Counted from the stretch's first letter, positions 2,587 through 30,855 are shown. The stretch is 64,000 bases of DNA from an uncultured Gammaproteobacteria bacterium (GCA_964415025.1 CAYPXF010000005.1:1484-65483), one strand, 5' to 3'. Numbers and translations are program-made. The notes: generated by a model not told the origin, from the letters alone.

Positions 2587-5421
2587 GTGTTCACAAACCG
2601 AAAACAATTTATAGGTATGTATAAATGGGCTTTTTTTAGCCTATTTTTTTGTCTGGTAATTATTGCTTTAGGCGTGCACCAAATCCATGCAAAAGTTATC
2701 GATCCAGAGGCGGCGCCACCAGAGAAAAATATGCCTGATTATATAAATATTGGCGGTGAGCATCAGGCTAAGCAGGGTGCCTTGCGATTGGGCAGTGATG
2801 CTGTGGGCGATCCGTATGAATACCAGCTCGAAGTAGTCGGTGAGGGCGGATTAATATCTAATACTAGCATAGAAAAAGACTTACGAGTTGAGTCAAATAC
2901 GGCCAGTGATCCGGCTCTGTATGTGGACGCAATCAATAATAAGGTATGTATAGGGGCATGTCTGGACCAATCAAATACCAGATTAGAAGTAAGCGGCAAT
3001 ACTCGGATAGACGCAGATCAATCTGAATATGGGATCAGGTCATATAGTGCTGGCCAAGCACTCTATGGCTGGGGCAGTACGTACGGTATCCAGGGGGTTA
3101 GCTCATCAGCTGACGGATATGGTATTTGGGCATCAAGTCCGCTAAGCACCGCGCTCGAAGGAGTAAATATTAATAATGCTTACAGCGGGGTGGCCGGATT
3201 TAGTACAGATGGCATCGGTATTTACGGCGCCAACACGAATTATCAGGGATTATGGGCCGGATATTTTGACGGACGAACTGAATCAACCAGGCAGGTCATT
3301 GGCCGTAAGTTTGTGCCTACCTCATATCCGCCGGCGATGGTGCAAAACACGTCAGGCCAGGTCGCTGGCTCGTATACGGTCAGCGGACGGCGGCTGGTCC
3401 ATGCCGATAGTTCTTTTGTCTGGACTAGTACGACCGCCGGATCGCTGTACAAAAGCAGAATCAGTGATATGCAGGATCAGTGGGAAGCAAGTCTCGGCGC
3501 TGAAACAACTGACGGGCTATATGACAGTAATAATTTTTGGGCAGTCATTCCTGCGAGCCAGGAGGTAAAAAAGATTAACGCTGATACCGGTATCGAGAGC
3601 TGTTCGTACACTGCCAGCAGTACTCCAACCGCCGTCACGTTTGACGGTAGCAGCTACTGGGTAGCTACTGATGAAGGACGGAGCGTAATCCAATTAGACA
3701 GCGATTGTAACGAAGTGCAGACAATTTTTATCGGCTATAATCTGACCGATATTATTTTTGATGGCACCTACTTATGGGCGGTATCAGATATCAGTGAGTA
3801 TATTATCAGCATAAATCCGTCTAATCCGTCCGGCAGCGAAGCCACTGCGTATGCGGGTATTAGTGGTAATAATCCTGGCAGGCTTTTGTTTGATAATTAT
3901 TATTTCTGGGTAATTAATCAGGATGATGATACTGTTACTGCGTTTTACCTGCGTGACGGCATGGCCAGGAAGTTTAATACCTATCAGACCGGCACCGGAC
4001 CAGCTGATCTGGTTTTTGATGGTATGCATGTATGGATTATGAACACGGATGGCCAGAGCGTATCCCGTTTACTCGCTGCTGATCCAACGCAAAAAAAAGA
4101 TATTCAACTGAATTTTGCACCGACCGGCATCGGATTTGACGGGACATATATCTGGATTTCAGGCGATAGCAGTATGGTGAAGCTGTATTCTGGAGTCGGG
4201 CATGGCACGATTGATGTTAGCAATGCTCTAGCCCTGCAAACAGCCACGGCCTCGATAATCCAGCGAGGTTACGCGGCTCTGACCGGATCTGCACGCGTCG
4301 GTGGGAATGCCTCATTTGCCGGTGATATAACTACCGCCGCTAACAGCTGGGGAACGGCGCAATCAGGAGATGTAATCATGAGTGATTATGGTGATACCTG
4401 GGCGCAGATGGGCAATCCCGGCATCAGTGAACGCTGGGTATTGTCATTTCTAGAGACTGATGACGGTACGATTTATGCCGGTACGTTTGATCAGGGAAAT
4501 GTGTATACCTATGATGCTGATACAGATACTTGGACTAATACCGGCGATTTAACCGGCGCAACCTATGTGTATGATCTTATCCAGACAGCAGACGGCACAA
4601 TATACGCCAGCACCGGCCAGAATGGTGATGTGTTTACCTATAATCCAGGCACAGATACGTGGACCAATACCGGAGAAATAACTGGCGCAGTCGATGCTAC
4701 CAGTTTATTACTGGGCCGCGACGGCGTACTCTATGTCGGAGTCGAACGTGCGGCAGGCACGGCACTGTTTTCATATAATCCCGGTACAGACATATGGACA
4801 GAGCGTGTGGCAATACCCGGGACAATACATTTATCCGATATGATCCAAGCTCGTGACAATATATTGTATATTGCCGCTCGTCCGTCAGATACGCCTGACC
4901 AAGGCGATGTTTACAAATACGACCCAGTCGCTGACACGCTGGTTAATTCCGGAAATTTGGCTGGAGCAACACGTGTCTATGATTTACTAGAAACAGCTGA
5001 CGGTACTATCTATGCGGCCACTCATCCAAATGCACAGGTCTTTGAGTACGACCGCTTTACCGACTCCTGGACAGGTTTAGCAGTGCTGCCGTGCGGAAAC
5101 GGGGTATGGTCGCTGCTGGAAACAAATGACGGTGCGCTGTATGCTGGCACAAACTGCAACGGGGACGTGTATGCCTATGACTTTATTAATGACCAATGGG
5201 ATATCGTGGGTTCAATGGGCAGTGCGACGCTGACAACGGCACTGTACGAGACAAGTGATCACCGGATCATGGCCGGTACTGCGTATGATACCGGCGTATT
5301 TCAGCTGACCATCACGCCGCTTTCGGCAGGCACGTACAGCTGTCCGGACGGTCATTTTGTTACTAGCATCACTACTAATAGCATAGACCAGGTTATCCGC
5401 GTTGATTGCCGGCCATTATAG
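2587..5421 (+). CDS. giant surface protein paralog A (944 aa): signal anchor, conserved N-terminal Gly-rich module, FDGTYLW-type beta-propeller, Kelch-like beta-propeller, C-terminal two-Cys module ending CRPL
   Basis: GTG start 7 nt after a GGGGGA RBS; N-terminal TM; six ~45-aa blades with [FY]DG.Y.W[VI]; six repeats DGTIYAGT...V[YF]TY[ND]..TDTWT; shares N- and C-terminal modules with the next two genes. Confidence 0.8.
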   Translation: MFTNRKQFIGMYKWAFFSLFFCLVIIALGVHQIHAKVIDPEAAPPEKNMPDYINIGGEHQAKQGALRLGSDAVGDPYEYQLEVVGEGGLISNTSIEKDLRVESNTASDPALYVDAINNKVCIGACLDQSNTRLEVSGNTRIDADQSEYGIRSYSAGQALYGWGSTYGIQGVSSSADGYGIWASSPLSTALEGVNINNAYSGVAGFSTDGIGIYGANTNYQGLWAGYFDGRTESTRQVIGRKFVPTSYPPAMVQNTSGQVAGSYTVSGRRLVHADSSFVWTSTTAGSLYKSRISDMQDQWEASLGAETTDGLYDSNNFWAVIPASQEVKKINADTGIESCSYTASSTPTAVTFDGSSYWVATDEGRSVIQLDSDCNEVQTIFIGYNLTDIIFDGTYLWAVSDISEYIISINPSNPSGSEATAYAGISGNNPGRLLFDNYYFWVINQDDDTVTAFYLRDGMARKFNTYQTGTGPADLVFDGMHVWIMNTDGQSVSRLLAADPTQKKDIQLNFAPTGIGFDGTYIWISGDSSMVKLYSGVGHGTIDVSNALALQTATASIIQRGYAALTGSARVGGNASFAGDITTAANSWGTAQSGDVIMSDYGDTWAQMGNPGISERWVLSFLETDDGTIYAGTFDQGNVYTYDADTDTWTNTGDLTGATYVYDLIQTADGTIYASTGQNGDVFTYNPGTDTWTNTGEITGAVDATSLLLGRDGVLYVGVERAAGTALFSYNPGTDIWTERVAIPGTIHLSDMIQARDNILYIAARPSDTPDQGDVYKYDPVADTLVNSGNLAGATRVYDLLETADGTIYAATHPNAQVFEYDRFTDSWTGLAVLPCGNGVWSLLETNDGALYAGTNCNGDVYAYDFINDQWDIVGSMGSATLTTALYETSDHRIMAGTAYDTGVFQLTITPLSAGTYSCPDGHFVTSITTNSIDQVIRVDCRPL

Positions 5422-5432
5422 ACTAAAGAATA

Positions 5433-8400
5433 ATGAAACATTTTGTCACATCGTATAATCGCAGAATATTATTACCAATAGGTTTGCTGGTTATTGTTTT
5501 AGCTCTGGTCGGAACCGTGAAGATAACTTATGCTGCCTGGGAAGAACCGCAGGCAGAACCGCCTGACGATAACATGTTTGCCCCGCTGGATGTGAGTGAT
5601 AATAACCAGGCTAAGCGCGGCCGCCTCCTGCTCGACCCGCTGTACAATCCGCTGGGCGCAATACCTGAAATTGATTATCCGCTCGAAGTCAGAGGTCCAC
5701 GCGACGTGTATATCAATAAACTCGAGATAGTAGCCGAAGGCGACCTTAGTGTCGATACAGATACGCTCGTGGTAGACGGTACTGGCCATATGGTCGGTAT
5801 GGGCACTGGCAGCCCGGACGAGCTGCTGGATATCCGCGGTTATGGCGCGACACTAGGCAGCGACAGCCAACTAATCAGCGGCAATGCGCTGGTAGTGACT
5901 GATGTGGGCAAATACGGAGCGTATGGCCTGTCACAGGGAGACAGCATTGCTTCAGTGCTTGGTGAGAGTGATAGCGGTTCAGGCATCTACGGTCTGCACA
6001 CTGCTGGTGGTACAGGCATCATGGCGCAGAGCGAATCCGCGTCTGCGGTCCGGGGAACAGTGTCAGCAGCGGCAGGCAGTCCGGTCGCTGCTGGTATATA
6101 TGCCCAGGCGCAGGGGCTGGGCTCGTGGGCCGGGTATTTTGCCCAGCGTGTGTATGGCACGCAAGAAGTAGTCGGATCAACATTTTTACCGACTGCATTA
6201 CCCTATTCGAGTATTCCGTATTCAGTTGGCTGGAAAACGCAGGACATCGCCCAAAGCTATGTACCGGCTTTTAGTAGTATCGCTTTTGACGGACGGTATC
6301 TCTGGATAAATAATTATACAGCCTATTGGAGTCAGGCTCCATATATTCACAAAATCGATGCCTATACTGGCGAACAGGTAGAAGCATTTAAGGTTTCTGG
6401 TGCGGAACACGCCTATAATAGCCCGGGCATGGGGACTATGGACTATGCTGGCGGCTATATTTGGATGGCAAATCCGTATAAAGACAACGAAGGGATATAC
6501 CGTATTGACCCGCATAGCCAGGATTATGACACTACGCTGTACTCTGTCGGAACCCATGATGCTGATGGCGATGGTAATACTGATGACGGCGAAAGTGACG
6601 GTCCGTTTGATTTTATATATGATGATATTACCTATCCTGATAATACGTTTGTCTGGGTAGTCAGTGATTACGAGGACAATGCCGCTGCTTCTCGCTATTA
6701 TATTACCAGACTTCAGCCAGCGGCCGATGAATACGGTTTTTGCTCTGACCCATCACAGCTGACGCAGGCGGGCTGTACTGGAACATGGTATGATGACTTG
6801 AGCGAGCTTGATTTCAGTGGCGCGACTTGTCCGGTATGCGTTAATTGTACCGGCACGACTACTACCGAACCATGCAGTGTGCCTGGATATTATACTGAAG
6901 CAGAATGCACCAACCCTTCGGTCGGAGGCGCCTGGGATCCAGATGCAAATTTTGGTTATGCCGAGCTGCGCTATCCCAGCGGCATCACTTTTGACGGTAC
7001 AAAAATCTGGGTCAGCTTTGCTGGCGGCGGCGCGTATGCCAGCGGGCTGGTTTCATTTGACGCGGCCGATCCTGTTAATACCGCGACAACGCATTGTGCC
7101 GGACCAAATCGCAACTTGCAAACAATTGACTGGGGCAGCGGCATGCTATGGGCAGGGGATAAACAACGGGAAAACGAAGTTGTCAGATTATTTGCTATTG
7201 ATCCAGCCGCTGATCCGCTGTATCTGGGCATTGATGATTATGGCTCGTTTGGAAGTGAGTTGGGAAGCGGTACAATATCTATCCTGGCATATGATGAGAA
7301 GTCAGCAGGCGGGCCATATCTCTGGGTTATTAATCCTTTTCATTTCGCAAAATTTTCTATAAATCCGGTGACAAAGACTTTGGCCCCGGCACATGTGTAT
7401 AGCCTCTATAATAGCGGGTATAATTTTGCCTTTGCTGAAAATGAAGCCGGCGAACGGACTGTATGGACTACTCATGGGAACGTTGGCGGTATTATCGAAC
7501 ACTTAGTTGATACGAGCGTGGCGCTCCCCGGTAACAGCCCGTATGCTCCGTATTACCAACGTGCGTTTTTGCCCGTGGGGGCTAGTGTTGGAGGAATGGT
7601 TTTTGACAGTACCTATATTTGGACAGCAGATCGTAATACTAACAAATTAAGTAAATTTAACATTGCTGACGGAAGCAAAATGGGTGATTATGACGCCGGA
7701 TGGTATCCGCTCGGCATAGTGTATGACGGCCGCTATATTTGGACAGTAAATAGTGATGAATATGGCTATAAACCAAACACAAACGATCTGACCAAATTTG
7801 ATCCAGTGAATGGTGAAATCGTAGACGAGTATAAAATCACAAATTATAACGGAGAAATGGACATAGCGCGCGGTGGATATATTGATATGCGTTTTGACGG
7901 ACAATATATATGGATTACCTTTCCGGACAGTGATGAAATTGCCGTATTTGATCCTGATACCATCGATACCTCCGGTGTAACTTTTTATGATGATACAGAC
8001 CATGGTATTGATAATCCGTACCGTCTCGTGTATGACGGGGAGTCTATGTGGGTATCGCATATTGATAATAAGATTTCGCGCGTTCAATCGGACGGAACTA
8101 ATGCGTTTACCAGGACATTTGATATAATTGACGGCGGTGTAGCTTATAATATTAGCGCGCTGGAATTTGACGGCACTTATCTTTGGATCGGCACTAAATT
8201 TATGGACACGCAAGGACGGAGTGTGTATAAATATGACCCAGCAGGAGATGTAATTGTTGATGAATTTACTGTATATAATGATTCGGGCATATGTTTAGCT
8301 GGTGAGCGGCAGTATCAGTATTGCCGCAGTGATGCTGACTGTCCTAGCAGTACATGCGACGCAAAAGGCTCTCGGGTAACCGATATATTATTTGATGGTA

Positions 8401-9305
8401 CGCATGTGTGGATTAAGCATGGGGGTAGGAATGATGATGCCGGTAGTATTGAGTGTAATGATGGCATAGACAATGACGGGGTAGGACATTGCGATATCTC
8501 GCCGTACGCGGTATGTACGAGCGACGCGGAATGTACTCCTGGTACCTGTGACTTCACTGATCAGGATGATGACCGTGGCGGCTGGTGTGAAAACACTTTT
8601 GATTTACATGAAGGATCGCGGTGCAATGATGATCAGGATAATGACCAGGATGGTACATGCGATCATGATGGGTGCAATGGATTGCCGGCAGATCTTGATT
8701 GTACTGATGAATTTTCTGATGCCGAGGGCAATCCTGAATGCAGCGACGGCTGGGATAATAACGGCGACGGACTGTGCGACTATGACGGCGCTGTCGGCGC
8801 TCCCGGGTGCAGCGGTAAGCCAGATCCGGGCTGTTCGAGCGCGAGTGATGCTAGCGAGGCAATACCTTCGACGCATTCAGCGCATTTAACGCGCATAATA
8901 CCGGCGACTGGAGCAGTGGTTGAGAGTCTGTATTATGATCGCTATACCCAAGTTTCAAATCATTTAGTATATGATGGCAGCAAAATCTGGATCGGAGATG
9001 GTAGTACCACGAGCCGTGAAACAGTGCATAGTTATTATGCCGGCACTGGACTGCGGACTGATTTGTCAGATACTGTCGTGCGGCAGGGCAGTTTTCCGGG
9101 CACGGCACAGATCGGACTGGCCAGCTACCATGGCTCACTGACTGTGGATACTGCCCTGGAGGTAATCGGCGATCTGGTCGTGACTACCAATATTTGGGGC
9201 GGTACTGCTGACGATGTGAAGGCGTTTGGCACGGCCTGTGATGACGGCCAGTTTATAAAAGGGATTGACACCACCAGCGGCCAATCCCAATGCCGACCAT
9301 TATAA
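5433..9305 (+). CDS. giant surface protein paralog B (1290 aa): same N-terminal module, FDG.Y.W beta-propeller repeats, Ca-binding Cys/Asp (TSP3-like) repeat region, C-terminal two-Cys module ending QCRPL
   Basis: starts 12 nt after paralog A stop; N-terminal TM; motifs NMFAPLDV..QAKRGRLLLDP, GIYG/GIYA repeats, SWAGYF; CNDGIDNDGVGHCD...CSDGWDNNGDGLCDYDG repeats; C-terminal NIWGGTADDV...C..GQFIKGI...QCRPL. Confidence 0.8.
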   Translation: MKHFVTSYNRRILLPIGLLVIVLALVGTVKITYAAWEEPQAEPPDDNMFAPLDVSDNNQAKRGRLLLDPLYNPLGAIPEIDYPLEVRGPRDVYINKLEIVAEGDLSVDTDTLVVDGTGHMVGMGTGSPDELLDIRGYGATLGSDSQLISGNALVVTDVGKYGAYGLSQGDSIASVLGESDSGSGIYGLHTAGGTGIMAQSESASAVRGTVSAAAGSPVAAGIYAQAQGLGSWAGYFAQRVYGTQEVVGSTFLPTALPYSSIPYSVGWKTQDIAQSYVPAFSSIAFDGRYLWINNYTAYWSQAPYIHKIDAYTGEQVEAFKVSGAEHAYNSPGMGTMDYAGGYIWMANPYKDNEGIYRIDPHSQDYDTTLYSVGTHDADGDGNTDDGESDGPFDFIYDDITYPDNTFVWVVSDYEDNAAASRYYITRLQPAADEYGFCSDPSQLTQAGCTGTWYDDLSELDFSGATCPVCVNCTGTTTTEPCSVPGYYTEAECTNPSVGGAWDPDANFGYAELRYPSGITFDGTKIWVSFAGGGAYASGLVSFDAADPVNTATTHCAGPNRNLQTIDWGSGMLWAGDKQRENEVVRLFAIDPAADPLYLGIDDYGSFGSELGSGTISILAYDEKSAGGPYLWVINPFHFAKFSINPVTKTLAPAHVYSLYNSGYNFAFAENEAGERTVWTTHGNVGGIIEHLVDTSVALPGNSPYAPYYQRAFLPVGASVGGMVFDSTYIWTADRNTNKLSKFNIADGSKMGDYDAGWYPLGIVYDGRYIWTVNSDEYGYKPNTNDLTKFDPVNGEIVDEYKITNYNGEMDIARGGYIDMRFDGQYIWITFPDSDEIAVFDPDTIDTSGVTFYDDTDHGIDNPYRLVYDGESMWVSHIDNKISRVQSDGTNAFTRTFDIIDGGVAYNISALEFDGTYLWIGTKFMDTQGRSVYKYDPAGDVIVDEFTVYNDSGICLAGERQYQYCRSDADCPSSTCDAKGSRVTDILFDGTHVWIKHGGRNDDAGSIECNDGIDNDGVGHCDISPYAVCTSDAECTPGTCDFTDQDDDRGGWCENTFDLHEGSRCNDDQDNDQDGTCDHDGCNGLPADLDCTDEFSDAEGNPECSDGWDNNGDGLCDYDGAVGAPGCSGKPDPGCSSASDASEAIPSTHSAHLTRIIPATGAVVESLYYDRYTQVSNHLVYDGSKIWIGDGSTTSRETVHSYYAGTGLRTDLSDTVVRQGSFPGTAQIGLASYHGSLTVDTALEVIGDLVVTTNIWGGTADDVKAFGTACDDGQFIKGIDTTSGQSQCRPL

Positions 9306-9311
9306 TCTCTT

Positions 9312-11795
9312 ATGTTTCACCATACTAAACAATCACACTATATCATCGCCGGCATCACGGTAATTATCGGCGTGGCGTGTGTTATTATTCCGCAGGCGGT
9401 ACAGGCAGTGTGGCTTGAGCCTGACAGCACGCCGACTAATGAGCAGTTTGACGCGCCGATCACGGCCGGATCGGAGAACCAGACCAAGAAAGGATATATA
9501 GAGCTGGATCCTGATTATTCACCGACCGATGAAACATCGTTTAGTTTTGGACCGGAGCGGCCACTCCATGTGCATGGAGAGGGCGCGCGGTTTGATGTGC
9601 CGACCACATATAGTGATATCCTGACCGTGGATACGGACACACTATATGCCAACGCAATTTACGACTGGGTCAGTATTGGCACCACGGCTATGCGGGATGA
9701 TTATTTGTTTGCCGTCGAGGGCGGCACTGTCCAGATCGGTACTAACGACGAGTCAGTGGCCGGACGCGGGCTAAGCGCCTACAGCAGTGATAGTGTGGGT
9801 ATTTATGCTGATGCCGGCGGCACAGGGACAGCAGGCGTGTATGGCTTGCGTTTACTCGGCAATGGCTTGGGCGTGCGGGGTACGAGCCAGACCGGTGTGG
9901 GCGTGCGCGGCGAAAGCCCGGACGGGTACGGCATCTATGCCGAGACCGCTTCGGCTACTAATGCGGCAGTGTACGGCGAGAACGCTCTGGGCGGCTGGGC
10001 TGGATATTTTGACGGACGATTAGGCAGTGATGCGGACATAGCCGGCGCGCAGTTTTTGAGCACCAAACTTGGCAGTTCGCTCATACCGCAGACATCGGGC
10101 TACAAGGTCGGTACGTACCAAATATCTGACGGGCCGGTATCAGGCGGTATTGCAGATTTAGTGTTTGACGGTACGTATTTATGGGCTACGAATAAATATG
10201 GCACAATCGATGATGAACATGACCGGAATCTTTTCAAAATGCGAGCGTCTGATGGAGAGTTGGTGCAATCATATTATATCGACGAATGGCCTCACCGCAT
10301 GGCGTATGACGGACGCTATTTATGGCTAGGTTATTATCACGGCAACGCGCTCTTCAAGGTCGACCCCCAAACCGGGGAAAAAATGGCAGATTGTTCAACA
10401 GTGCCTTCGCCACGGGATCCGCTGATGTATTGGGGCACGTCTGAATCGCCCGGATTGGCGACTAGTGTTGAGGATGGGGACGTGTATATTTGGACGGCGA
10501 ATGACCGCGGCGGCGATGTGACGAAATTTGATCAAGGCTGTAATCTAGTGGGAGTATATCCGGCCGGTACTACTGGGGAGGGTAATTATGAAAATCGTCT
10601 CAATAGCGATGGCGAACGGTTAAGCGTAAGCAATGCCATCTATGCTGATGAGTATATATGGGTACTCACACCAAATATCTGCCGGGAGGCAGGCGCGACT
10701 CCATCTACAAATCCCTTTATATCAGCATCGGCCATACGGTATTGCAGCGATGACACGCACTGTCCAGCAGGAGATGGCTATGACGGCTGCATAGATCAGC
10801 CTACCCAGCTGGTTAAAATGGATGCCACAACCGGAGTTGTCCTGGACAGCTACGATATCGGCATGACTCATCCAGCACAGATAGTGTTTGACGGCGTATA
10901 TTTATGGATAGCAAATGCCACAGCCCCGGCCAGCCAAACATATATTGCTAAAGTGCGCGCTTCTGACGGTCAGTGGATGGGGTATATTGATGTGCCGAGC
11001 CCGGTGACTGATTTAGTCTTCGACGGCACGTATATCTGGGCATCTGGTAATGGTAATCCCACAGGATCGATGTATCGAATTCCGGCATCTGAAACCGATT
11101 TTAGTAGTCCTGATATCTCCACCTATACTAATACACTCTTGACCGGTTGGTGGGATGGCGATTTAGTGTTTGATGGTACCTATATCTGGCATTTATCACA
11201 GTGTGCAGAAGATCCAAGTGGTCCAGGTTGTTATTCAAATTGTGACGAGTATCCTCCAGGCAGCGGGAATACTAATTGCCCGTTGTCAGTTACTAAGCAT
11301 TTTAGCGGTGCCGGGCCGGGCACTGTAGATACTGGTAGCAGTGTCGTACTGCGCCAGCGCACAGGGGTATGTATGGATCTGTCTCAACCAACGATAGAAA
11401 GTATTTATACAGAGATAGAGTGTGTTTATGATTCGCACTGCCCCAACTCATGGCCCTGCAGCACTCAATATTCTAGTCAGTCCGGCAATATGAATATCAC
11501 TGGCGGCCTGGTTGCCCAGATCGACCATTGCGAGAGCGATGGCACACACTACTACAGCCGTGCTTGTGACGAGGACGCTGACTGCGATGGCCTGACCAAC
11601 GGGCAATGCGTCGGCGGCGGCGGCCGCGTGGGCACTGACGTAAAGGCAGACAATAATGTCTGGGGCGGCACTGATGACGTACAGGCACTGAACGCCGCCG
11701 GCGACACGGCCGTGTGCGCCGCCGGGCAATTTGCCAAGGGACTTACTATTGACAGTAATGGCAAAATTACCCAAATGATTTGCCGGGAATTATAA
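9312..11795 (+). CDS. giant surface protein paralog C (827 aa): same N-terminal module, FDG[TV]Y[LI]W beta-propeller, Cys-rich C-terminal region ending ICREL
   Basis: starts 6 nt after paralog B stop; signal peptide ...AVQA/VW; motifs FDAPITAGSENQTKKGYIELDPD, GIYA/GVYG/GVRG repeats, GWAGYFDGR; C-terminal NVWGGTDDV...C.AGQFAKG...ICREL. Confidence 0.8.
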   Translation: MFHHTKQSHYIIAGITVIIGVACVIIPQAVQAVWLEPDSTPTNEQFDAPITAGSENQTKKGYIELDPDYSPTDETSFSFGPERPLHVHGEGARFDVPTTYSDILTVDTDTLYANAIYDWVSIGTTAMRDDYLFAVEGGTVQIGTNDESVAGRGLSAYSSDSVGIYADAGGTGTAGVYGLRLLGNGLGVRGTSQTGVGVRGESPDGYGIYAETASATNAAVYGENALGGWAGYFDGRLGSDADIAGAQFLSTKLGSSLIPQTSGYKVGTYQISDGPVSGGIADLVFDGTYLWATNKYGTIDDEHDRNLFKMRASDGELVQSYYIDEWPHRMAYDGRYLWLGYYHGNALFKVDPQTGEKMADCSTVPSPRDPLMYWGTSESPGLATSVEDGDVYIWTANDRGGDVTKFDQGCNLVGVYPAGTTGEGNYENRLNSDGERLSVSNAIYADEYIWVLTPNICREAGATPSTNPFISASAIRYCSDDTHCPAGDGYDGCIDQPTQLVKMDATTGVVLDSYDIGMTHPAQIVFDGVYLWIANATAPASQTYIAKVRASDGQWMGYIDVPSPVTDLVFDGTYIWASGNGNPTGSMYRIPASETDFSSPDISTYTNTLLTGWWDGDLVFDGTYIWHLSQCAEDPSGPGCYSNCDEYPPGSGNTNCPLSVTKHFSGAGPGTVDTGSSVVLRQRTGVCMDLSQPTIESIYTEIECVYDSHCPNSWPCSTQYSSQSGNMNITGGLVAQIDHCESDGTHYYSRACDEDADCDGLTNGQCVGGGGRVGTDVKADNNVWGGTDDVQALNAAGDTAVCAAGQFAKGLTIDSNGKITQMICREL

Positions 11796-11800: not shown

Positions 11801-14800
11801 ATGGACCAATCAATACGACACAATAATACTTTTTCTAAAATTGTTTTCGCATTATTAAGCATTGCCAGCCTAATAGTGGTTATCGGCCTGCTCTATATTG
11901 TCATGGCCGGTCAGACGCAGGACGCGACTGAAACAGATCCGGAAACAGTACTGGATCCTGCCCTGGCCCAGGAGGTGCGCAATTATGAAATCGTGGACAA
12001 TGGCGACGGTACGCATTCAGCATTGTACGGTGTGGGGCCGATCCAGTATTTGACAAACAATCCGGGCGAGTACGCGGCTATTGATTCGACTATTGTCGAG
12101 TCAGCGCGCGAGGGCGTGGCCTATGAAAATACTACTAATGTTATCAACACCTTTTTCGGCAGTGATGTCACTGATCCGAACTTTATTTCCTACCAAATAC
12201 CGGGTGAGCGCGGCGTCGGTTTTACGTTTCCTGATGCCCAGCAGTCTGCCTGGGCCGTAGCAGAAAATGTAGCCACCTATCCGGAGCTGTATCCGGGCAT
12301 GGACGCGCGGTATACTATCCAAAACGATGTCATGCTGGAGGAATTGATAGTAGACAATAAGGAAGACGCCAGTAATTTTCACCGGCTTGACCAACAGGTC
12401 ACTCTGCATGACGTGTATTTCCGCGAGCAGGATGACGGCTCAATCACGTTCCATGATGCTGATACCAGGCACGCCGTGTTCGTCATACCCCGGCCGGTGC
12501 TGTATGAAGACGGCGATACATTGCGCCAGAACGCGAACTACGGACTGCATTTTGAGATATCGCGAACAGACACTGACACGTATTTAATTTCGAAAGTTAT
12601 TGACGACGGAGGGAAAGAGTGGCTCGAAAAAGCTGACTACCCTATAATTATAGATAATACGTATATTGGTGGATTTAATGCGGCTGTTGGCTCGACTAAG
12701 CGGTATAAGAGAATCGGCGGCGCGAGCTGGTCCTGGAGTATCATGATGGATTCTGGTATATATGGGTACCCTTTTATTACTACAGGAAAATACACAAACG
12801 GCTGTTCATTAGGAAACAGTAGTTGTATACAACATGAATATCATGGACATTATACTTTTCATACGTATGACGTAGGTGCGCCCTATACCCAGGATCAGGT
12901 CGTGGGGGCTCGGTTCCAGGTGTCTATGGTAAGGAGTGATGACGATGGCGAGTATCTCGCTCCGGTGAATGTATATTCTGGGGCAAACGCATGGGATCCA
13001 AATAAATCATTTAGTGAATCTTTTACTGCGGCGGAAATTGAAGACCGCTGGAATGCACTCACCAGCATGCATCAGGAAGTAGATATAGATACTGCCGGAC
13101 TGCCAACCTATACTAATCGCGGGATGTGCTATCCTGGCAGTTCTCCGGAGCAGTGTCGGCGGGTAGTGGACATAGACCTAAATTCTATTGGTATGACCAG
13201 CAGTCAGGATCATACTCAGATAATGTTGGATGCACCATCAGCCTCGTACCTTAATTGTGGGGGGTCAAGCTGTAATGATTTTCATGGAGTTATTAGCTGG
13301 CGGCCAGTATCATCTACTGATATGCCGTATCCTAAGCTGGAGGTGATTTACTATCCTGATCCGACGATCCGTGTGGACCCCATGGCTATTCCTGAGGGTG
13401 AGAAGAAAATGGAAATTCAGATAGATGATGATTTTACGGATGATAGTAGCTACAAATTGGAGCGCTCATTTGACGGGTCAGGCGGACCGTGGACCGAGGT
13501 GTGCAGTAATATTGCTACCGGCGCGAGCGGGACGTGCCAGTCAGGCATCACCTATGACTGTACCGGCATTACCGAGGCAGGCACGTCCGGATACTGTACC
13601 GTGACGGACGATATCAGCGTGTCAGGCGGCGGACCGCGGTATTCTGACAAGCATACCTGGTACCGAGCACGAGTGGTGGGAACATCAGGCTATGTATCTG
13701 ACTATAGCCCGGTGGCGCATGATTATACGTTTGCTTATCCCTATCCAGAGGCTCCGCCAAATTCTGACAGCAGCGAAAGCTGGGATAAAATTAAAATTTG
13801 GGCACCTGGGAGCGGTAATGAATACTCAAACCAGGGTTCATTCTTAACTATTGACCCAGAGCCGACAAAGTATTGCATGGCGACATATACTCCCTCTATG
13901 CTTGGGTGGTACAATCCTCCAACAAACGATTGGCGGTATCATCATCATTCATCAGCAGCGTATTCTGATGTTTGGAACGAATATTCAGAAGGCACATATG
14001 ATGGACGTGATTATATTAATAACAATGACGGCGATAATCTTGCCTGCAAAACAATGGCTCAGTGGATATACTTTGGCGGGTATCCTTATTATAGCATTGG
14101 CGAAGTAGAGGATAGTTATCGTTTACGGCCAAATACATATTATGCTTTTTCCTTTTTATCGCAAAATACCCGTGATGGCACTGTAAATTCCCCTATTGTT
14201 ATGCCGGAGTATGCGCAAACCAGGGCGCGGGTACCGTCTAAACCAATCCAGAATAATGGCATAACAACGCAAAACGCACTGGGATTGGCGCTCGACAGCA
14301 CGCCACAGTATGCCCCGACAGAGTACGTGAATGACCCTAATGGCAATACGACATATGCTATGTATGTCGAGGAACTTAACAGGTATTTTAACTCTGATAC
14401 TGGTACACTGTCATCGTCTGCCGTATGGCGGCGTGAATCTGACTGGGGCGGAGCAGGCGGTATTGCGTACGGTGGTTTTGCTCCGGGGACTTGCTACAGT
14501 ATCAAAGCAAAATCACGCAATGGTGCAAGTATAGAGGGGGAAACACCAGCCCGGATTTGGTCAGATACTGGCCAATACTGTACCAAAATGGCCGTACCTT
14601 CGTTATCCGTGGCTTGCCAATACACTGACGCGGATGACGACTATAATTGCGATATCACCCTGGATGCCAACGGTAATCCAGCCGGCACAGAATACAAGTT
14701 CGAATACTGTTTGCCGGAGAGCGGGAGTAATTGTTCTGCCGGATCTGGTGACTGGCAGGAAATACTCATAGGAGGCAAGGAGTGGAATTCGTATAACCAC

Positions 14801-21656: not shown

Positions 21657-22811
21657 ATGGCAAAACCAACAAGTTATCTGGGTGTTGATCTAGGAGGATC
21701 CAGCCTAAAAATCGTCGAGCTCAAAAGCGTCAATAACAGACCGCAGCTGGTTACCTATGGTCTGATAGACGAGACATATAATATTATCAAGGATGACAGC
21801 GCGTCAGCCCGCGCCGAAGTAGCCCGGCATTTGAAAGAGCTGACGAAGAGTTCGCGTGTTTCGACTGATAAAGTGGTTTCAGCATTACCGAGCTATAGCG
21901 TCTTCAGCTCTATCATCAGCCTGCCGGCCATGAGCAAAAAAGAGTTGATATCAGCAGTGCGCTGGGAAGCCAAGAAATTCGTGCCTATTCCACTCGAAGA
22001 AATGATCCTGGATTGGGAAGTGCTGGAACAGGGAGAATCAGCGGAAGACACGCGCGGAGAACAAGCCGCCGAAGACGCGCACGATGACGAAGCAGAGGAA
22101 AAAGCCGCAGAAGAAGATTCAGACAAAGATCAAAAAAAGAAAAAACCATCAATGTCATCCGGTGACAAGAAATCGATAAAAGTGTTACTAACTGCCGCAC
22201 CAAAAAATTTAGTAAACCGCTATGTTGAGGTGTTTAAGCAAGTAGACCTCCAGCTGGTCGGATTAGAGACTGAATCGTTTGCCCTGGAGCGATGCCTAAT
22301 AGGCAATGATTCTTCTCCTATCATGATTATTGATATCGGCAACAACGCTACAAGTATTATAATATTCAGCGGCGGTGTTCCAATTCTGAATCGCAGTATT
22401 GATGTTGGAGGTGCCAGTATTTCTAATAAGCTCGTAGAAGTAATGGGGCTAAACCAGGAGCAGGCAGAGCAATATAAACGTGATATGGGCACTAGCATGG
22501 CCGGTCAAAAAATCAGCGATTTACCACAGCCTGTTGCCCATGTTGTTAATTCAGTGATTAATGAAATCCGCTATATATTGAATATTTATCAAAACCAAAA
22601 CCGCCAGCATATTAAAAAAATTATTTTAACCGGCGGGTCGGCATTTTTAGCTAACCTTACAGAAAATATAGAAGATGTGTTTAATATAAAGTCATTTGTC
22701 GGTGATCCATGGGCCAGGGTAGTGCATCCAGTGGAAATTGACGGATTGCTAAAGGGCCTAGGACCGAGAATGTCTGTCAGTATTGGCCTAGCCATGAGAG
22801 AAATCAGCTAA
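21657..22811 (+). CDS. pilM: type IV pilus assembly ATPase-fold protein PilM
   Basis: 384 aa; N-terminus MAKPTSYLGVDLGGSSLKIVEL (actin-like PilM/FtsA fold) with an acidic low-complexity insertion. Confidence 0.8.
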   Translation: MAKPTSYLGVDLGGSSLKIVELKSVNNRPQLVTYGLIDETYNIIKDDSASARAEVARHLKELTKSSRVSTDKVVSALPSYSVFSSIISLPAMSKKELISAVRWEAKKFVPIPLEEMILDWEVLEQGESAEDTRGEQAAEDAHDDEAEEKAAEEDSDKDQKKKKPSMSSGDKKSIKVLLTAAPKNLVNRYVEVFKQVDLQLVGLETESFALERCLIGNDSSPIMIIDIGNNATSIIIFSGGVPILNRSIDVGGASISNKLVEVMGLNQEQAEQYKRDMGTSMAGQKISDLPQPVAHVVNSVINEIRYILNIYQNQNRQHIKKIILTGGSAFLANLTENIEDVFNIKSFVGDPWARVVHPVEIDGLLKGLGPRMSVSIGLAMREIS

Positions 22812-22846
22812 ATATTGACAAAATAGTAAATATATACCATAAAAAG

Positions 22847-22870
22847 AGTTTGCATGCGCAAACTTTTTTT
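22847..22870 (+). terminator. rho-independent terminator after pilM
   Basis: AGTTTGC-atgc-GCAAACT hairpin followed by TTTTTTT. Confidence 0.6.
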
Positions 22871-22915
22871 AGTTTACGAATACAATTAAAGTAAGGATAA
22901 AAAACTTAAAAAACC

Positions 22916-22944
22916 TTGACTTTGGCTAAAAAATATGCTAAAAT
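22916..22944 (+). promoter_or_regulatory. sigma70-like promoter for the pilN operon (TTGACT-17 nt-TAAAAT)
   Basis: near-consensus -35/-10 hexamers with 17-nt spacer, 160 nt upstream of the pilN ATG. Confidence 0.55.
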
Positions 22945-23046
22945 ATAGATATATTGCTCAAATATTGGCATAATGCTTGGCATATGTATGACCAAGGATT
23001 GTACTATATATAAAACAAAAATTATCCCGAATTAGCTAAAAATCAC

Positions 23047-23062
23047 CACAAATATATTTGTG
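23047..23062. promoter_or_regulatory. perfect 16-bp palindrome CACAAATATATTTGTG in the pilN 5' UTR (candidate operator)
   Basis: exact dyad symmetry 42 nt upstream of the pilN start. Confidence 0.35.
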
Positions 23063-23103
23063 ATTAATCAAATATAATTCGTGGAAAAAACAAAAATTAG
23101 GTT

Positions 23104-24975
23104 ATGTCAATTAACCTGCTTCCTGAACAGGAAAAATCAAAAATAAAACCTACCAATAAGGCGTCAGTTACCCAAATAGAGATGACCGGACCGCGCCAAG
23201 GAGGAAACAAAAAACCGGCTGCTAAAGAGTCAGGTGTTTTGACATTTTTTAAACAGGCGTTTACTAAGCCAGGTGCACCGCAAACGGATGAAAAAAAGTT
23301 TCCGGAAAAAAAGGTCAGGATTATGGAACGTCCTGCCAAAAAAGCGGCCCATAAGCCAGAAACACAAAAGCAACCAGAACAAAATAAAAAGGTAGTCTAT
23401 ATTAAGCCGAGCGACGAAGGCATGCAGGCAGATAAAAGCAAAGGCATACTGGAAAAAGTATTAGACTTTTTCCGGAGTTTGTTTTCCGCAGGGACACCCC
23501 GCAATCAGCCTGCTGAGAAATCAGCCGCAGTCCCGGAGCCAAAAGAGGAATTCCCAACATATAAACCAATCACAACCAAACAAGTATCTGACAGCAATCA
23601 TGTCGATACTTCACAAGATAAGATAATCGAAGTAACAACTTCATATCAATCTGACGATGAGCAGGCAGCCAAGCCGGCGGCAGTTCCAGCTGACGTGCGC
23701 GAGGAAATGCCAGGCGCGCAACCGATAGTACGGCCGACGCGCACAAGCACACCAGCGCAGCCGATCCAGCAGCCGGAGGATAAGCATGAAAAAGAAACAA
23801 TAGAATTAGAGCGTACCGACCAGCCAGTTCCACGGGACAGACAATACACCGATCAGCAATCCAAAACCGTAGCAGAAAAAAAACCTGACACAGACAGACA
23901 AAACGCACTGATACGCTGGCTGCAGGGCGTGCTGCAGACTATTAAGAATCTATTTACCCGGGAGAAAAAGCCGGTGTCCTCCCCACCGCCGACAGAGCGA
24001 GGACGGGAAGCTGATAGCGACCAGCTGCCGAAGATCAGCCTAGAAAAAAGCACTGAAAATATTCACATTCCCGAAGCAGCCGATCGGAAAACAGCCTTAG
24101 ATGATTTACCGCCCCCTCCATCGCCTCCTGCAGAGGATACATCAGAGGCGGCAGCCGCAACACCTGCCGCGGAACTACAAAAAAAATCAGTACCCGACGA
24201 CATCGATCCGTCACCGGCTCCTGTTTTAGAAAGCGAAATAGATGCCGCGCCCCAGCCGACTGAGCTATCACGGCCTGCGGCGAGTATAAAACCCGGGAAG
24301 CACCCGCCGAAAAAAGAAAAAAAAGACAATGAGATAGCAATGACCAGTCCCCAGGAGCAGGAAGTGAAGCCAGCACTGCAGTGGGAGGTTAATCTCATCC
24401 CCGAGGATGCGGTCGAGGTGCGCATACCGGTGAGCCGTTATTTATATCTGGCGCTGGTCGGTATTGTCTGCGCCGGGCTGGTATTCGGCGGGTGGATAGC
24501 CGCCAACTGGTATTACAACAACATCACCACTGATATCAGTGAAGTTAATACACAGATTTCATCAGTAGAAATTCAGATAAATCAAAAAAAGAACGTTGTT
24601 GAACAGGTCCAGTACATAAACCAGCAGGCAGAACATGTCGCCAGCCTGATAGACGAACACGTGTACTGGTCGCCGTTGTTTACAAAAATCGAAAGCTATG
24701 TTGCGCCAGAGGTGTATTTCACCAGCATGAACGCCGATGTTAATGGCGTGGTTACCCTGACTGCTGTCGGTGAAAATTATGAGGCCGCTGTCAAACAGCT
24801 CTATGTGCTGGAACGCGCTGCTGACTTTGTCCAGCAGGCCAGTGTCGAGAATATATCCTTTGTCAGCGAGGGCGCTGCTATGGATACAGAAACGCAAGCA
24901 TCGGTTATTGTCGACCGTCCCGTCAATTTTTCGATCAAGCTAACAGTCGATCCGTTACTTTTTTCCCATCAATAA
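23104..24975 (+). CDS. pilN: PilN-like pilus assembly protein with ~430-aa Pro/Lys/Glu-rich disordered insertion
   Basis: 623 aa; N-terminal MSINLLPEQEK (the conserved PilN INLLP PilM-binding motif); long low-complexity region; single TM (YLYLALVGIVCAGLVFGGWIAANWYY); ~170-aa C-terminal periplasmic domain. Confidence 0.7.
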   Translation: MSINLLPEQEKSKIKPTNKASVTQIEMTGPRQGGNKKPAAKESGVLTFFKQAFTKPGAPQTDEKKFPEKKVRIMERPAKKAAHKPETQKQPEQNKKVVYIKPSDEGMQADKSKGILEKVLDFFRSLFSAGTPRNQPAEKSAAVPEPKEEFPTYKPITTKQVSDSNHVDTSQDKIIEVTTSYQSDDEQAAKPAAVPADVREEMPGAQPIVRPTRTSTPAQPIQQPEDKHEKETIELERTDQPVPRDRQYTDQQSKTVAEKKPDTDRQNALIRWLQGVLQTIKNLFTREKKPVSSPPPTERGREADSDQLPKISLEKSTENIHIPEAADRKTALDDLPPPPSPPAEDTSEAAAATPAAELQKKSVPDDIDPSPAPVLESEIDAAPQPTELSRPAASIKPGKHPPKKEKKDNEIAMTSPQEQEVKPALQWEVNLIPEDAVEVRIPVSRYLYLALVGIVCAGLVFGGWIAANWYYNNITTDISEVNTQISSVEIQINQKKNVVEQVQYINQQAEHVASLIDEHVYWSPLFTKIESYVAPEVYFTSMNADVNGVVTLTAVGENYEAAVKQLYVLERAADFVQQASVENISFVSEGAAMDTETQASVIVDRPVNFSIKLTVDPLLFSHQ

Positions 24976-24976
24976 T

Positions 24977-25561
24977 ATGAAATTCGCTTCCGTAAAAACA
25001 AGCATTTCACTGTTCTTCAATAAATACTTTATTGCGGTATTGATTGGCGTCGGGATATTAGTCCTGGCCGCTGGGTATTTTATCTTTATCAGTGGGATCA
25101 TGGCAGATATCCAGCAGGCCGGCTCAAGCGATTTGGAGGGGCGGCATCAGGTCTTGAACGCCAAACAGCGGACACTGCGCAAGCTCGAATCTCTGGAACA
25201 GCGGCATAAGCAGGTGACCGCGGCAGAAGTGGAACGCCTGGAAAAATTTCTCCCCATGGAAGACGATATTCCGCTGGTGATGATAGAGATAAAGGAATTT
25301 ATCGAACAAAATGATCTAACAGTCGCCTCGCTCGAAAGCGGTCCGCTGATCACCGGCAGCGACAGCGTAGCGGCCGAGGCGGATCAGGGCATCCAGGCGC
25401 TGAATATTACGGTTGCTATCAGCGGCATTGACAGCTATGTCAAGCTAAAAGATTTTCTGGATCAGATGAGCACGACGCTGCCGATCCTGGAGCTGAAGTC
25501 ATTAGCATATGTTCCGGGTACTGATACCTACAGCCTCAACCTGACAACCTATTACCAATAA
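24977..25561 (+). CDS. pilO: PilO-like pilus assembly protein
   Basis: 194 aa; N-terminal TM, coiled-coil, then alpha/beta domain; positioned after pilN. Confidence 0.6.
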   Translation: MKFASVKTSISLFFNKYFIAVLIGVGILVLAAGYFIFISGIMADIQQAGSSDLEGRHQVLNAKQRTLRKLESLEQRHKQVTAAEVERLEKFLPMEDDIPLVMIEIKEFIEQNDLTVASLESGPLITGSDSVAAEADQGIQALNITVAISGIDSYVKLKDFLDQMSTTLPILELKSLAYVPGTDTYSLNLTTYYQ

Positions 25562-25568
25562 GCGCAGT

Positions 25569-26735
25569 ATGGCCACAATAGATAAAAACAAAAAATTCTC
25601 CAAACGAACCATTATACTATTGGCAGTGTTCAGCGTTCTCCTGGTCGGCGGCGGATATTATGCGTATACGGTACTGTTTGCCGCTGGTGATACGGAGGAT
25701 TTATTATTGTCAGACGGAGCAATAGTAGCGGAACAACGCGTGGTCGTGCCAGAGTTTGAAGGGGACTTACTGACCAATAAGCAGTTTTTACAGTTTCAGA
25801 AAAAAACACCGTCCCAGTTCAGCGAACAGCTGGATGTCACTGTCAGGCCAGCAGACGCTGTAACCGCGCCAGGCGTTATCACGGTGCATAATTCTGGATA
25901 TGGCGATGCGCTCTTTGTTTCATGGACTGCTCCGGCAACAGCGGCTGACGCATATATCGTCTACCGTTCCCAAAACGCTAACGGCGGCTATGCTCCGCGT
26001 GCCATGGTCACCGGAGAGGAAACGGGATATGTAGACACGGCAGTCCAGCCAGGCAATACGTATTACTATACAGTCCGGTCAGTGCGCTCTGAAGAAATGA
26101 ATCGAGTCAGCGGCGTCACCAGCGCATCATCACCGCAAACAGGCATTCAGGTATCTGCCAATCAGGATGAGGCCGCGCGAATCAGCGTTGATGATTCGCC
26201 AGAGATTGATGCCCGGGTAGTACTGCGGCTGCGCGATGGACAAGAAAAACTGGTGGCAGTGATGACAGAAGGTCAGCGGACTGCCTATGACACTGGCGGG
26301 CAAACGTCAGACTCGTATACGGTTATTTTCTATTCTATGTTTTCCATGTCACAGGCGGCTGCCAGTGCCAGCCAGACGGTTACGGATACTGTCTTGCCAG
26401 ATCCGCCGACTGATATCCGGGTGGCAGTGGATGAGGCGGGCGAAAGCGTGCTCATAACATGGCGCAATCCAGACAGCCCGGACTTTAGTTATATTCGTAT
26501 CTACCGCTCTACGGCAAAAGGGTCGCTCGGTACGCTGATCAATCCGGAATCGTATAATTTCATCGGATTGTACGACCGGGAAAACGATTACTATTATTAC
26601 CAGGATACAAATGTTGAGCAGAACGTGGTTTACTATTATACTGTAACCAGTGTTGATAAGGCGGGTAACCAATCCAGCACCGATCTGCTGACAGTGCCGT
26701 ACCGCGCTAATCCGTTTGAACCAATTGTTTTTTAG
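25569..26735 (+). CDS. membrane-anchored protein with two fibronectin type III-like domains (T4P-associated, PilP/PilQ position)
   Basis: 388 aa; N-terminal TM; two FN3-like segments (…WTAPATAADAYIVYRS…YYYTVRSV and …ITWRNPDSPDFSYIRIYRS…YYYTVTSVDKAGNQS). Confidence 0.6.
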   Translation: MATIDKNKKFSKRTIILLAVFSVLLVGGGYYAYTVLFAAGDTEDLLLSDGAIVAEQRVVVPEFEGDLLTNKQFLQFQKKTPSQFSEQLDVTVRPADAVTAPGVITVHNSGYGDALFVSWTAPATAADAYIVYRSQNANGGYAPRAMVTGEETGYVDTAVQPGNTYYYTVRSVRSEEMNRVSGVTSASSPQTGIQVSANQDEAARISVDDSPEIDARVVLRLRDGQEKLVAVMTEGQRTAYDTGGQTSDSYTVIFYSMFSMSQAAASASQTVTDTVLPDPPTDIRVAVDEAGESVLITWRNPDSPDFSYIRIYRSTAKGSLGTLINPESYNFIGLYDRENDYYYYQDTNVEQNVVYYYTVTSVDKAGNQSSTDLLTVPYRANPFEPIVF

Positions 26736-26741
26736 GGTACT

Positions 26742-28493: not shown

Positions 28494-28511
28494 TTAATAT
28501 AATGGCACTCT

Positions 28512-28901: not shown

Positions 28902-28939
28902 TCTGCTAAAAACAAAGCAAATAAAAATTATACATAACC

Positions 28940-30145: not shown

Positions 30146-30173
30146 AAACCGAGGCACGAGCGCGTATTTTACT

Positions 30174-30202
30174 TTGACATTTTGCTAAAAATATGATATT
30201 AT
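30174..30202 (+). promoter_or_regulatory. sigma70-like promoter for pilA (TTGACA-17 nt-TATTAT)
   Basis: consensus -35 and good -10 with 17-nt spacer, ~180 nt upstream of pilA. Confidence 0.55.
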
Positions 30203-30290
30203 ATACATACATCATTGCTCTTTTACGCTCATTTATCCTAATTATTAATCCAGCGCCAGCGTACTGTCCAGTACGGAAATAATAAATAGG

Positions 30291-30314
30291 CACGGATCAG
30301 TTACCGGATCCGTG
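30291..30314 (+). promoter_or_regulatory. 8-bp-stem hairpin (CACGGATC...GATCCGTG) in the pilA 5' UTR, preceded by a 14-bp palindrome GTACTGtcCAGTAC at 30261-30274
   Basis: perfect inverted repeats seen directly; ~70 nt upstream of the pilA ATG. Confidence 0.35.
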
Positions 30315-30837: not shown

Positions 30838-30855
30838 TAGATAATACTAATATAC

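Follow-up and report, generated by a model that had tools for sequence, protein, structure and literature searches.

How the ultrasmall bacteria of the Patescibacteria, or candidate phyla radiation (CPR), recognise and attach to their hosts is largely unknown, and their adhesins are mostly unidentified. Cultivated Patescibacteria attach to their hosts by means of type IV pili and require them to do so; in TM7x the adhesin candidate PilX2 is a propeller protein with a non-pilin signal peptide (PMC12206443, PMC11880426). Here we analyse a locus at which giant genes stand directly before a type IV pilus cluster, and we ask what the N-terminal region common to three of their products is and what it may do. 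The window, that is, the whole stretch of DNA analysed, comprises 64,000 nucleotides deposited under the name of an uncultured Gammaproteobacteria bacterium (GCA_964415025.1 CAYPXF010000005.1:1484-65483). The question concerns four successive large open reading frames (ORFs) on its + strand:

2587-5421, + strand: ORF A, 944 amino acids
5433-9305, + strand: ORF B, 1290 amino acids
9312-11795, + strand: ORF C, 827 amino acids
11780-21490, + strand: giant protein D, 3236 amino acids, the fourth gene of a conserved cassette, directly 5' of pilM

A, B and C share a module of about 220 residues that is a genuine protein domain outside Pfam and NCBIfam. In a clade of Patescibacteria related to Ca. 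Kerfeldbacteria, their genes and that of D make up a fixed cassette of four, placed at the 5' end of the pilus cluster. The three proteins are good candidates for the host-attachment apparatus of an ultrasmall Patescibacteria/CPR bacterium.

The shared module and its shaft unit

The module occupies the following positions:

2692-3336, + strand: module of A, residues 36-250, from mature residue 1 to the F-x-P-T cap, with WAGYF at 3253-3267
5535-6209, + strand: module of B, residues 35-259, with WAGYF at 6126-6140
9408-10079, + strand: module of C, residues 33-256, with WAGYF at 9996-10010

Each pair among the three modules aligns from end to end as one high-scoring segment pair in BLASTP with composition adjustment (A/B, E = 4e-19; A/C, E = 5e-13; B/C, E = 4e-21), at 27-30% identity. 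Their Smith-Waterman scores lie 17-25 standard deviations above those of 300 composition-preserving shuffles. In the same shuffles the Gly-poor first 100 residues give z = 10-19 on their own, and the Gly-rich remainder gives z = 9-13. It could be argued that the likeness is merely compositional, a product of Gly/Ser/Ala-rich low complexity, since glycine makes up 13-15% of the module. The z scores over shuffles, those of the Gly-poor first 100 residues included, the composition-adjusted E values and the retention of the family across genomes refute this explanation, to which we attach a negligible probability. A sequence-only reading of this DNA had proposed a collinear N-terminal module with a series of ordered motifs, to be abandoned if alignment gave compositional, non-collinear similarity; the alignment, now carried out, gives the opposite, and every motif listed is present in the order stated. 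Its further proposal, a search with a hidden Markov model, was borne out in relatives, from which the family is recovered. On a six-frame translation of the window the model finds three copies only, in A, B and C, and D is without the module.

By family consensus, the module has four parts. An N-cap, x-W-x-E-P-x3-P-P-x2-N-x3-P...Q-A-K-x-G-x-L-x-L, is followed by one shaft unit, PLEVxG...L-x-VDTDTLYVD-x4-VGIGTxxPxxxLxVxG, then by six or seven Gly-rich beta beats of 10-13 residues each, G[VI]YGxSxx, and finally by a cap, WAGYFxGR...GxxF[LV]P. In most modules of the A type, V-C-[IVL]-G-x-C-L replaces the loop VGIGTxxP (window 2980-3010, A residues ~118-126) and may represent a disulphide-stapled variant; at least one A-type member, P0035, retains VGIGTSTP.

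The shaft unit relates the module to phage tail fibres and was located in B as follows:

5679-5837, + strand: tail-fibre-shaft-like unit in the module of B, PLEVRG...LSVDTDTLVVDGTGHMVGMGTGSPDELLDIR

Judged by sequence, module residues ~50-105 are homologous to the phage tail-fibre shaft repeat, of which they form one copy. In BLASTP, the unit of B is 43% identical (E = 1e-8) to P0002, a tail-fibre-like protein whose C-terminus is a Peptidase_S74 intramolecular chaperone. The B module also matches phrog_5906 (E = 2e-7; a value of 4e-8 was also obtained), and the family consensus matches phrog_5342, a 'tail fiber protein', at E = 5e-5. The sole match of the P0002 repeat in the PDB is the trimeric beta-helix of Bd3182, a mosaic adhesive trimer (MAT) fibre of Bdellovibrio (8ojn; RVGVGTTAPTSALHV), at a marginal E = 0.068, and the link of Bd3182 to the module is transitive only, through P0002. 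The N-cap, the Gly-rich beats and the WAGYF cap had no counterpart in the libraries searched.

As a whole, the module matches nothing in Pfam or NCBIfam even at E <= 10, and its profile matches nothing meaningful among PDB sequences. An AlphaFold2 (AF2) model of the isolated B module, built from a 42-sequence alignment, is all-beta, with a predicted local distance difference test score (pLDDT) of 75 and a predicted template modelling score (pTM) of 0.53. The weak matches ranked at the top when this model was compared with the PDB by Foldseek are all MAT fibre domains (E = 1.8-10). Together, these weak results are consistent with a fibre-like fold, possibly an oligomeric one. Where a beta-helix or a beta-roll had been suggested, the predicted fold is all-beta; the beta-roll is unsupported, the module having no GGxGxD and no Asp ladder. 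An RTX beta-roll was thus rejected: nonapeptides of that type are absent, the beats G[VI]YGxSxx have a period of 10-13 residues, and there is no Pfam match. Also rejected were a trimeric autotransporter head (YadA-head/Hep_Hag repeats with a membrane anchor), for which there are neither signatures nor a Pfam match, and an SLH or other catalogued wall-binding domain, for which the module gives no match in Pfam or NCBIfam at E <= 10.

Three exported paralogues in a fixed cassette

The module is preceded in each protein by a hydrophobic segment that had been taken for a signal anchor:

2587-2691, + strand: predicted signal peptide of A, residues 1-35, ending HQIHA before KVIDPEA; the -3/-1 AxA pattern is family-wide
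5433-5534, + strand: predicted signal peptide of B, residues 1-34, ending KITYA before AWEEPQ
9312-9407, + strand: predicted signal peptide of C, residues 1-32, ending QAVQA before VWLEPD

The segment has instead the form of a canonical, cleavable Sec signal of the signal-peptidase-I type. Of 65 family members, 62 have Ala at position -1 and 63 have A, V or T at position -3, and across the 65 the AxA site is followed by [AE]-W at +1/+2. We infer cleavage from the -3/-1 rule, and because the site is of this type the module most probably begins at mature residue +1. No Pfam match to the class III pilin signal (PF07963/N_methyl) was obtained in A-D, and the true pilins of the window carry PF07963. 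A-C were therefore rejected as prepilins or minor pilins, the class III signal being absent and AxA sites being found at their N-termini. Nor is A a lipoprotein, as the 'LFFC' of A-type signal peptides is no lipobox and an AxA site follows it.

The regions downstream of the module are made up as follows:

3379-4176, + strand: blade region of A, of beta-propeller type and adjoining the module, [FY]DGxYxW units
4186-4215, + strand: post-propeller linker of A, YSGVGHGTID
4384-5301, + strand: second propeller of A, Kelch/Reg_prop-like (Pfam Kelch_3, Reg_prop, Kelch_6), an insertion
5341-5418, + strand: putative C-terminal two-Cys hairpin of A, CPDGHFVTSITTNSIDQVIRVDCRPL-COOH
6255-9002, + strand: blade-repeat region of B, 9 FDGxYxW units with Cys/Asp-rich insertions
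9033-9062, + strand: post-propeller linker of B, YYAGTGLRTD
9237-9302, + strand: putative C-terminal two-Cys hairpin of B, CDDGQFIKGIDTTSGQSQCRPL-COOH
10089-11261, + strand: predicted beta-propeller of C, 7-8 blades (AF2 and Foldseek)
11301-11330, + strand: post-propeller linker of C, FSGAGPGTVD
11715-11792, + strand: putative C-terminal two-Cys hairpin of C, CAAGQFAKGLTIDSNGKITQMICREL-COOH

The sequence-only reading had called the centres of the three proteins unrelated, a view that does not hold: the regions 3' of the module can be aligned among A, B and C by way of their recurring blade units, [FY]DGxY[ILV]W (E = 1e-9 to 1e-11), and the linker, [YF][SY]GxGxGTxD, and the C-terminal end are common to all three. 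In an AF2 model of full-length C, built with 20 orthologues, residues 260-650 form a propeller (pLDDT 70-93), whose Foldseek matches in the PDB are generic 7-8-bladed propellers (Tako8, WD40, YncE, YVTN; E ~1e-12 to 1e-10). The C-terminal element, C..G.F.(K)G...C-R-x-L, stops exactly at the C-terminus and is predicted to be a disulphide-type hairpin. Its full two-Cys motif is present in 58 of 70 full-module proteins, and 67 of the 70 end in C-x-x-L/I, in most cases C-R-x-L. Because centres, linker and C-terminus are shared as well, A, B and C are best described as full-length paralogues with lineage-specific insertions. The common layout runs from signal peptide and module through a 7-8-bladed FDGTYLW propeller, a YSGxGxGT linker and variable insertions to the C-R-x-L hairpin.

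Among the insertions, the second propeller of A has an occupancy of 0.15-0.5 across orthologues and is found in only about half of them. In B, positions 8445-8852 (residues ~1005-1140) carry Cys/Asp-rich repeats, C-x-D-x2-D-N-D-x-D-G-x-C-D, which are of low occupancy in B orthologues and reminiscent of calcium-binding repeats. A possible likeness of the C-terminal C.xG.F..G...C unit to one VMO-I-type beta-prism repeat was considered and set aside, no Pfam match supporting it. CaaX-type prenylation of the C-x-x-L end was rejected: the proteins are Sec-exported and the middle residues are not aliphatic.

At E <= 1e-3, an exhaustive HMMER search over 1.84 billion cluster representatives yielded a module family of 1624 proteins, of which 66 remain at E <= 1e-30. 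Among the top 150, about 70 match the profile over its full extent, invariably at residues ~35-265, in proteins of 490-2100 amino acids; the remaining ~80 are multi-repeat proteins with several matches each to profile positions ~60-110 only. The family was recovered through this search alone. Word-indexed protein searches gave one fragment and one S74 protein with a 3-sequence profile, nothing with a 56-residue N-cap profile, and two matches with a 42-sequence profile.

The full-module proteins fall into A, B and C types (22/25/23, respectively). Within a type, most members have a module 34-56% identical to that of the window protein (close orthologues, 40-56%), vs ~30% between types; for a few members, among the most divergent, the distances to the three types are almost equal. 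Orthologues can be aligned along most or all of the protein, with identities in the best BLAST alignments of 27-35% for A, 29-40% for B and 29-49% for C. On these sequence comparisons, A, B and C are three ancient orthologous types. The module is the best-conserved segment of the orthologues, at 0.37-0.57 identity per 50-residue bin vs 0.2-0.4 in the propellers. Total length varies with the gain and loss of downstream domains (A, 692-1504 amino acids; B, 681-2159), and the distance from module start to WAGYF differs by 10-30 residues between paralogues of one genome, once by more than 150. A cluster look-up of one member, P0013, returned 'Patescibacteria group bacterium'.

A scan of one genome per species gave seven loci (L001-L007), all from Patescibacteria and including the complete chromosome of a Ca. 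Kerfeldbacteria metagenome-assembled genome (MAG; CP181398.1). Two more divergent family members (L029, L030) were found by exact sequence look-up. Each of the nine related genomes has a single gene of each type, always in the order A, B, C. In L001 and L003-L007, as in the window, genes for peptidase M48, LemA and a protein of ~170 amino acids lie on one strand, followed on the opposite strand by A, B, C and D; L002, cut at its 5' end, shows A-B-C-D only. L029 and L030 have the same M48-LemA-x and A-B-C-D arrangement, with pilM next in L029. Thus, the cassette is an ancient, fixed trio of full-length paralogues, accompanied by D, and not a variable repertoire of adhesins.

The junctions within the cassette are tight, with gaps of 11 nucleotides between A and B and of 6 between B and C, and a 16-nucleotide overlap between C and D. 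Alternative starts are possible for A (ATG at 2617 instead of 2587) and for D (ATG at 11801 instead of TTG at 11780). The best promoter-like site in the 20-kb region, a consensus match only, is the following:

2434-2463, + strand: sigma-70-like promoter match, TTGACA-18-TAAAAT with TG extension, ~120 bp 5' of A

No comparable signal was found by the consensus scan between A, B, C and D, and the cassette is probably transcribed from one promoter. D has an N-terminal transmembrane segment, an FN3-like domain, DUF6923/YDGTYLW propeller blades resembling those of A-C, and a conserved C-terminal end, ...Y-A-R-V-T-P. After 166 nucleotides it is followed by the pilus genes:

21657-39533, + strand: type IV pilus cluster, encoding in order PilM, three unnamed proteins, PilB, PilC, a pilin, a family 2 glycosyltransferase (GT2), a Wzy_C/tetratricopeptide repeat (TPR) protein, a pilin, PilD and four minor pilins

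A metagenome scan with PilM gave 21 loci, of which 15 have enough upstream DNA. A D-like giant stands directly 5' of pilM in 15/15, ending in Y-x-[RQ]-V-x-P or similar, and PilM is only 49-57% identical in some of the loci that keep this adjacency. Where the region 5' of D is visible (L009, L017), it encodes a protein ending in CRGL or CRPL. Distant relatives (L019-L021) have a single diverged module protein, without WAGYF or C-R-x-L, in the ~10 kb upstream of pilM.

Several further features of these loci were noted. The major pilin is encoded at 30319-30837. The four consecutive minor pilin genes (36081-36767, 36771-37385, 37451-38182 and ~38175-39533) end with a GspK/PilX-like one of 483 amino acids, whose real start is probably internal (MSKHYSQRGSVLL...); the four would amount to a full tip-complex set, which according to a recent preprint typical monoderm type IVa pili lack. 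The GT2 and the Wzy_C (O-antigen-ligase-like) TPR protein encoded between the pilin genes (31147-34229) suggest glycosylation of pilins or surface proteins. A DsbA-like thioredoxin gene at 59997-60791 is compatible with extracytoplasmic disulphides in the many Cys-containing segments of A-D. G+C content drops to 0.32-0.39 at 46000-58000 vs 0.45-0.53 elsewhere, in a region with genes for an aminotransferase, GAF proteins, a methyltransferase and a seven-transmembrane GAF histidine kinase, which may be an acquired island. In L029 a Y1-transposase-like gene (11966-12556) lies between C and D, so that this junction can be interrupted. L029 (3081-3311) and L030 (185-541) also have, between M48 and LemA, a small gene for a 23S_rRNA_IVP/bAvd-like four-helix bundle, a kind of gene found alongside diversity-generating retroelements; the window lacks it, with only 65 nucleotides between M48 and LemA. 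A-C were rejected as targets of such a retroelement, their C-terminus being conserved, not variable, and the window having no bAvd-like gene. Finally, L001, L006 and L007 are third-party-annotation MAGs titled 'uncultured Gammaproteobacteria bacterium'; in gene content and order they agree with the Patescibacteria loci, and the label is probably wrong.

The role of the module

What, then, does the module do? The reading we prefer, and to which we give an even chance of being right, is that it is the conserved base or stalk by which the A-B-C trio docks its propeller heads to a common partner. Each protein, perhaps once oligomerised, would be fixed by its module to a single partner on the surface of the bacterium itself, candidates being the cell envelope, protein D, the pilus or the pilus tip complex; the propellers and inserted domains would face outward to contact the host cell. 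We infer a base or stalk because the module is the best-conserved part both within and between paralogues and stands at the mature N-terminus, and because in tail fibres and MAT fibres it is the conserved N-terminal domain that serves as the attachment end. The sequence-only reading had likewise seen a common stalk, in a polymorphic adhesin family. The stalk fits a best-conserved module with variable downstream domains, and the polymorphic set gives way to a fixed trio of full-length paralogues.

Several results weigh against a base or stalk. The AF2 model of the module is of moderate confidence (pTM 0.53), and in the model of full-length C the module falls below pLDDT 50. Foldseek gives no significant match to the PDB (best E = 1.8), and none in a viral library, where tail-fibre and S74 proteins dominate the weak matches (best E = 1.9e-3, TM-score <= 0.26). 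Once the signal peptide has been removed, as predicted, nothing in A-C can be recognised as a membrane anchor or a covalent one. Conservation extends to the extreme C-terminus, which could itself be the docking end, as in PilC/PilY1. In addition, synteny with pilus genes falls short of proving a physical association.

The conserved C-terminus is the starting point for the main rival, the view that A-C are pilus-tip adhesins of the PilC/PilY1 kind, in which the C-R-x-L hairpin would plug the minor-pilin tip complex (36081-39533) by beta-strand augmentation and the module would be the distal, fibre-like business end, not an anchor. The signal-peptidase-I-type signal, the large size and the beta-propeller in A-C agree with it, and so do the C-x-x-[LI] end of all 27 trio proteins from the nine genomes, with the full C-terminal motif in most of the wider family, the location of the genes within a pilus cluster that encodes four minor pilins, one of them GspK-like, and the precedent of TM7x PilX2 within the Patescibacteria (PMC12206443). 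However, the PilY1 propeller family (PF05567/IPR008707) gives no Pfam match at E <= 0.1, the matches of the C propeller being generic; the N-terminus, variable in PilY1, is the most conserved part of A-C; their C-terminal element looks like a folded two-Cys hairpin, not a disordered tail; and their genes lie ~15 kb from those of the minor pilins, at the opposite end of the cluster. We regard this view as unlikely, if deserving of serious attention. More improbable in our judgement is that the module binds the surface layer (S-layer) or a cell-wall polymer in otherwise ordinary surface proteins, with the nearby pilus genes reflecting co-regulation or chance. Many S-layer-anchored proteins have a Sec signal peptide, a conserved N-terminal domain and variable distal domains, a layout that fits A-C, as does their want of a pilin-type signal. 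Against this, no SLH or known wall-binding domain was matched, and chance is an unlikely reason for D and pilM being adjacent in all 15 relatives, down to PilM identities of 49-57%.

The three proteins might also assemble 1:1:1 into a heterotrimeric, tail-fibre-like stalk, one fibre with three propeller heads. Such an assembly would account for the retention of a single copy each of A, B and C, with strict co-occurrence and order in nine genomes and family totals of 22/25/23; the 11- and 6-nucleotide junctions suggest coupled expression, shaft units of this sort build intertwined trimers in MAT fibres and in the tail fibres with S74 (PMC10769870), and the poor model of the module as a monomer in its full-length context points the same way. 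Yet module lengths that differ by 10-30 residues, once by more than 150, are awkward for an in-register triple helix, there is one shaft unit only, and L019-L021 have a single recognisable module protein in the ~10 kb upstream of pilM; a heterotrimer seems to us rather improbable. The fuller proposal, in which A-B-C is a heterotrimeric, tail-fibre-derived host-recognition fibre loaded on the type IV pilus tip complex or on D in Kerfeldbacteria-like Patescibacteria, is decidedly doubtful. If true, it would describe a phage-fibre-like targeting device on a retractable pilus, each fibre bearing three distinct propeller heads; monoderm episymbionts would then have a novel means of functionalising their type IV pili. 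As to the notion of polymorphic adhesins whose unrelated, exchangeable heads arose by recent duplication and shuffling, downstream content and length do vary among orthologues (A, 692-1504 amino acids; B, 681-2159). The centres, however, are homologous, the paralogues are ~30% identical even in the module against 34-56% for orthologues, and copy number and order are fixed. Because number and order are fixed and A, B and C have a common architecture, this notion is largely refuted, and we consider it very improbable. The base or stalk remains our preferred reading. The cassette as a whole raises a testable question: which of the two conserved ends docks where, and is the trio one complex?

Comparison with known systems

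A-C lack at least one defining feature of each system with which they were compared: MAT fibres, S74 fibres, PilC/PilY1, pilins, and SLH, RTX and autotransporter proteins. The domain, the propeller body, the C-terminal hairpin, the obligate trio and its fusion to a pilus cluster were not found described in the literature searched. What emerges is a domain family absent from the catalogues and, just before the pilus machinery throughout a clade, a conserved cassette of four genes.

PilC/PilY1 and TM7x PilX2 are, like A-C, large proteins other than pilins that combine a Sec-type signal with a beta-propeller and whose genes accompany those of the pilus; paralogues have a conserved terminus in common, and the proteins are candidate adhesins for contact with the host. 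The plug of PilC/PilY1, formed by the last 12 residues and common to paralogues, docks onto the tip minor pilin by beta-strand augmentation (bioRxiv 10.64898/2026.09.18.752573). A-C differ in that the polarity of conservation is reversed, the N-terminus being the conserved end; in that they end in a two-Cys hairpin and not in a 12-residue disordered plug; and in that their genes, on the strand and in the cluster of the minor pilins, stand at the 5' end, ~15 kb away from 36081-39533. Type IVb cargo proteins of the CofJ/TcpF type dock through an N-terminal peptide in a minor-pilin trimer (bioRxiv 10.64898/2026.09.18.752573). They too are Sec-exported non-pilin proteins, and the conserved mature N-terminus of A-C could serve as such a docking peptide; this is an analogy only, with no sequence relationship, and A-C are far larger.

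With the S74 tail fibres A-C share both sequence and logic: module residues ~50-105 correspond to the shaft repeat L.VDT.TL.VD..N.VGIGT..P...L.V.G, and the conserved N-terminal part is the attachment end in those fibres. The differences are that A-C have a single repeat unit and no S74 (SDxxxK) chaperone, the Pfam scan giving no match to Peptidase_S74 (PF13884) in A, B or C, and that they are cellular, predicted to be Sec-exported and encoded in a pilus cluster.

The MAT fibres of Bdellovibrio bacteriovorus resemble A-C in several respects. In all 21 MATs the signal peptide leads straight into a conserved beta-rich domain, which is presumed to bind an element of the predator surface, and a possible interplay with type IV pili has been noted (Caulton et al. 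2024; PMC10769870). As with the module, this N-terminal domain has no PDB homologue; a fibre shaft motif of the type (R)VG[VI]GTxxPxxxLxVxG is present, as one unit that resembles the capping loops (VG..xxPxxxL) of the MAT shaft; and both occur as several paralogues per genome in a bacterium that must attach to other bacteria. The MAT N-terminal domain is ~130 amino acids long and the module ~220, and the two were compared by layout only, the MAT PDB entries being C-terminal. MATs have long trimeric beta-helices with variable tips or S74, and number 21 diverse members; here there is one shaft unit, a propeller body, a conserved C-terminus and a fixed trio. A base-plus-shaft design on a surface adhesin is thus already known. 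With a conserved N-terminal base after the signal peptide and a tail-fibre-like shaft, A, B and C extend this design from phages and Bdellovibrio to CPR bacteria.

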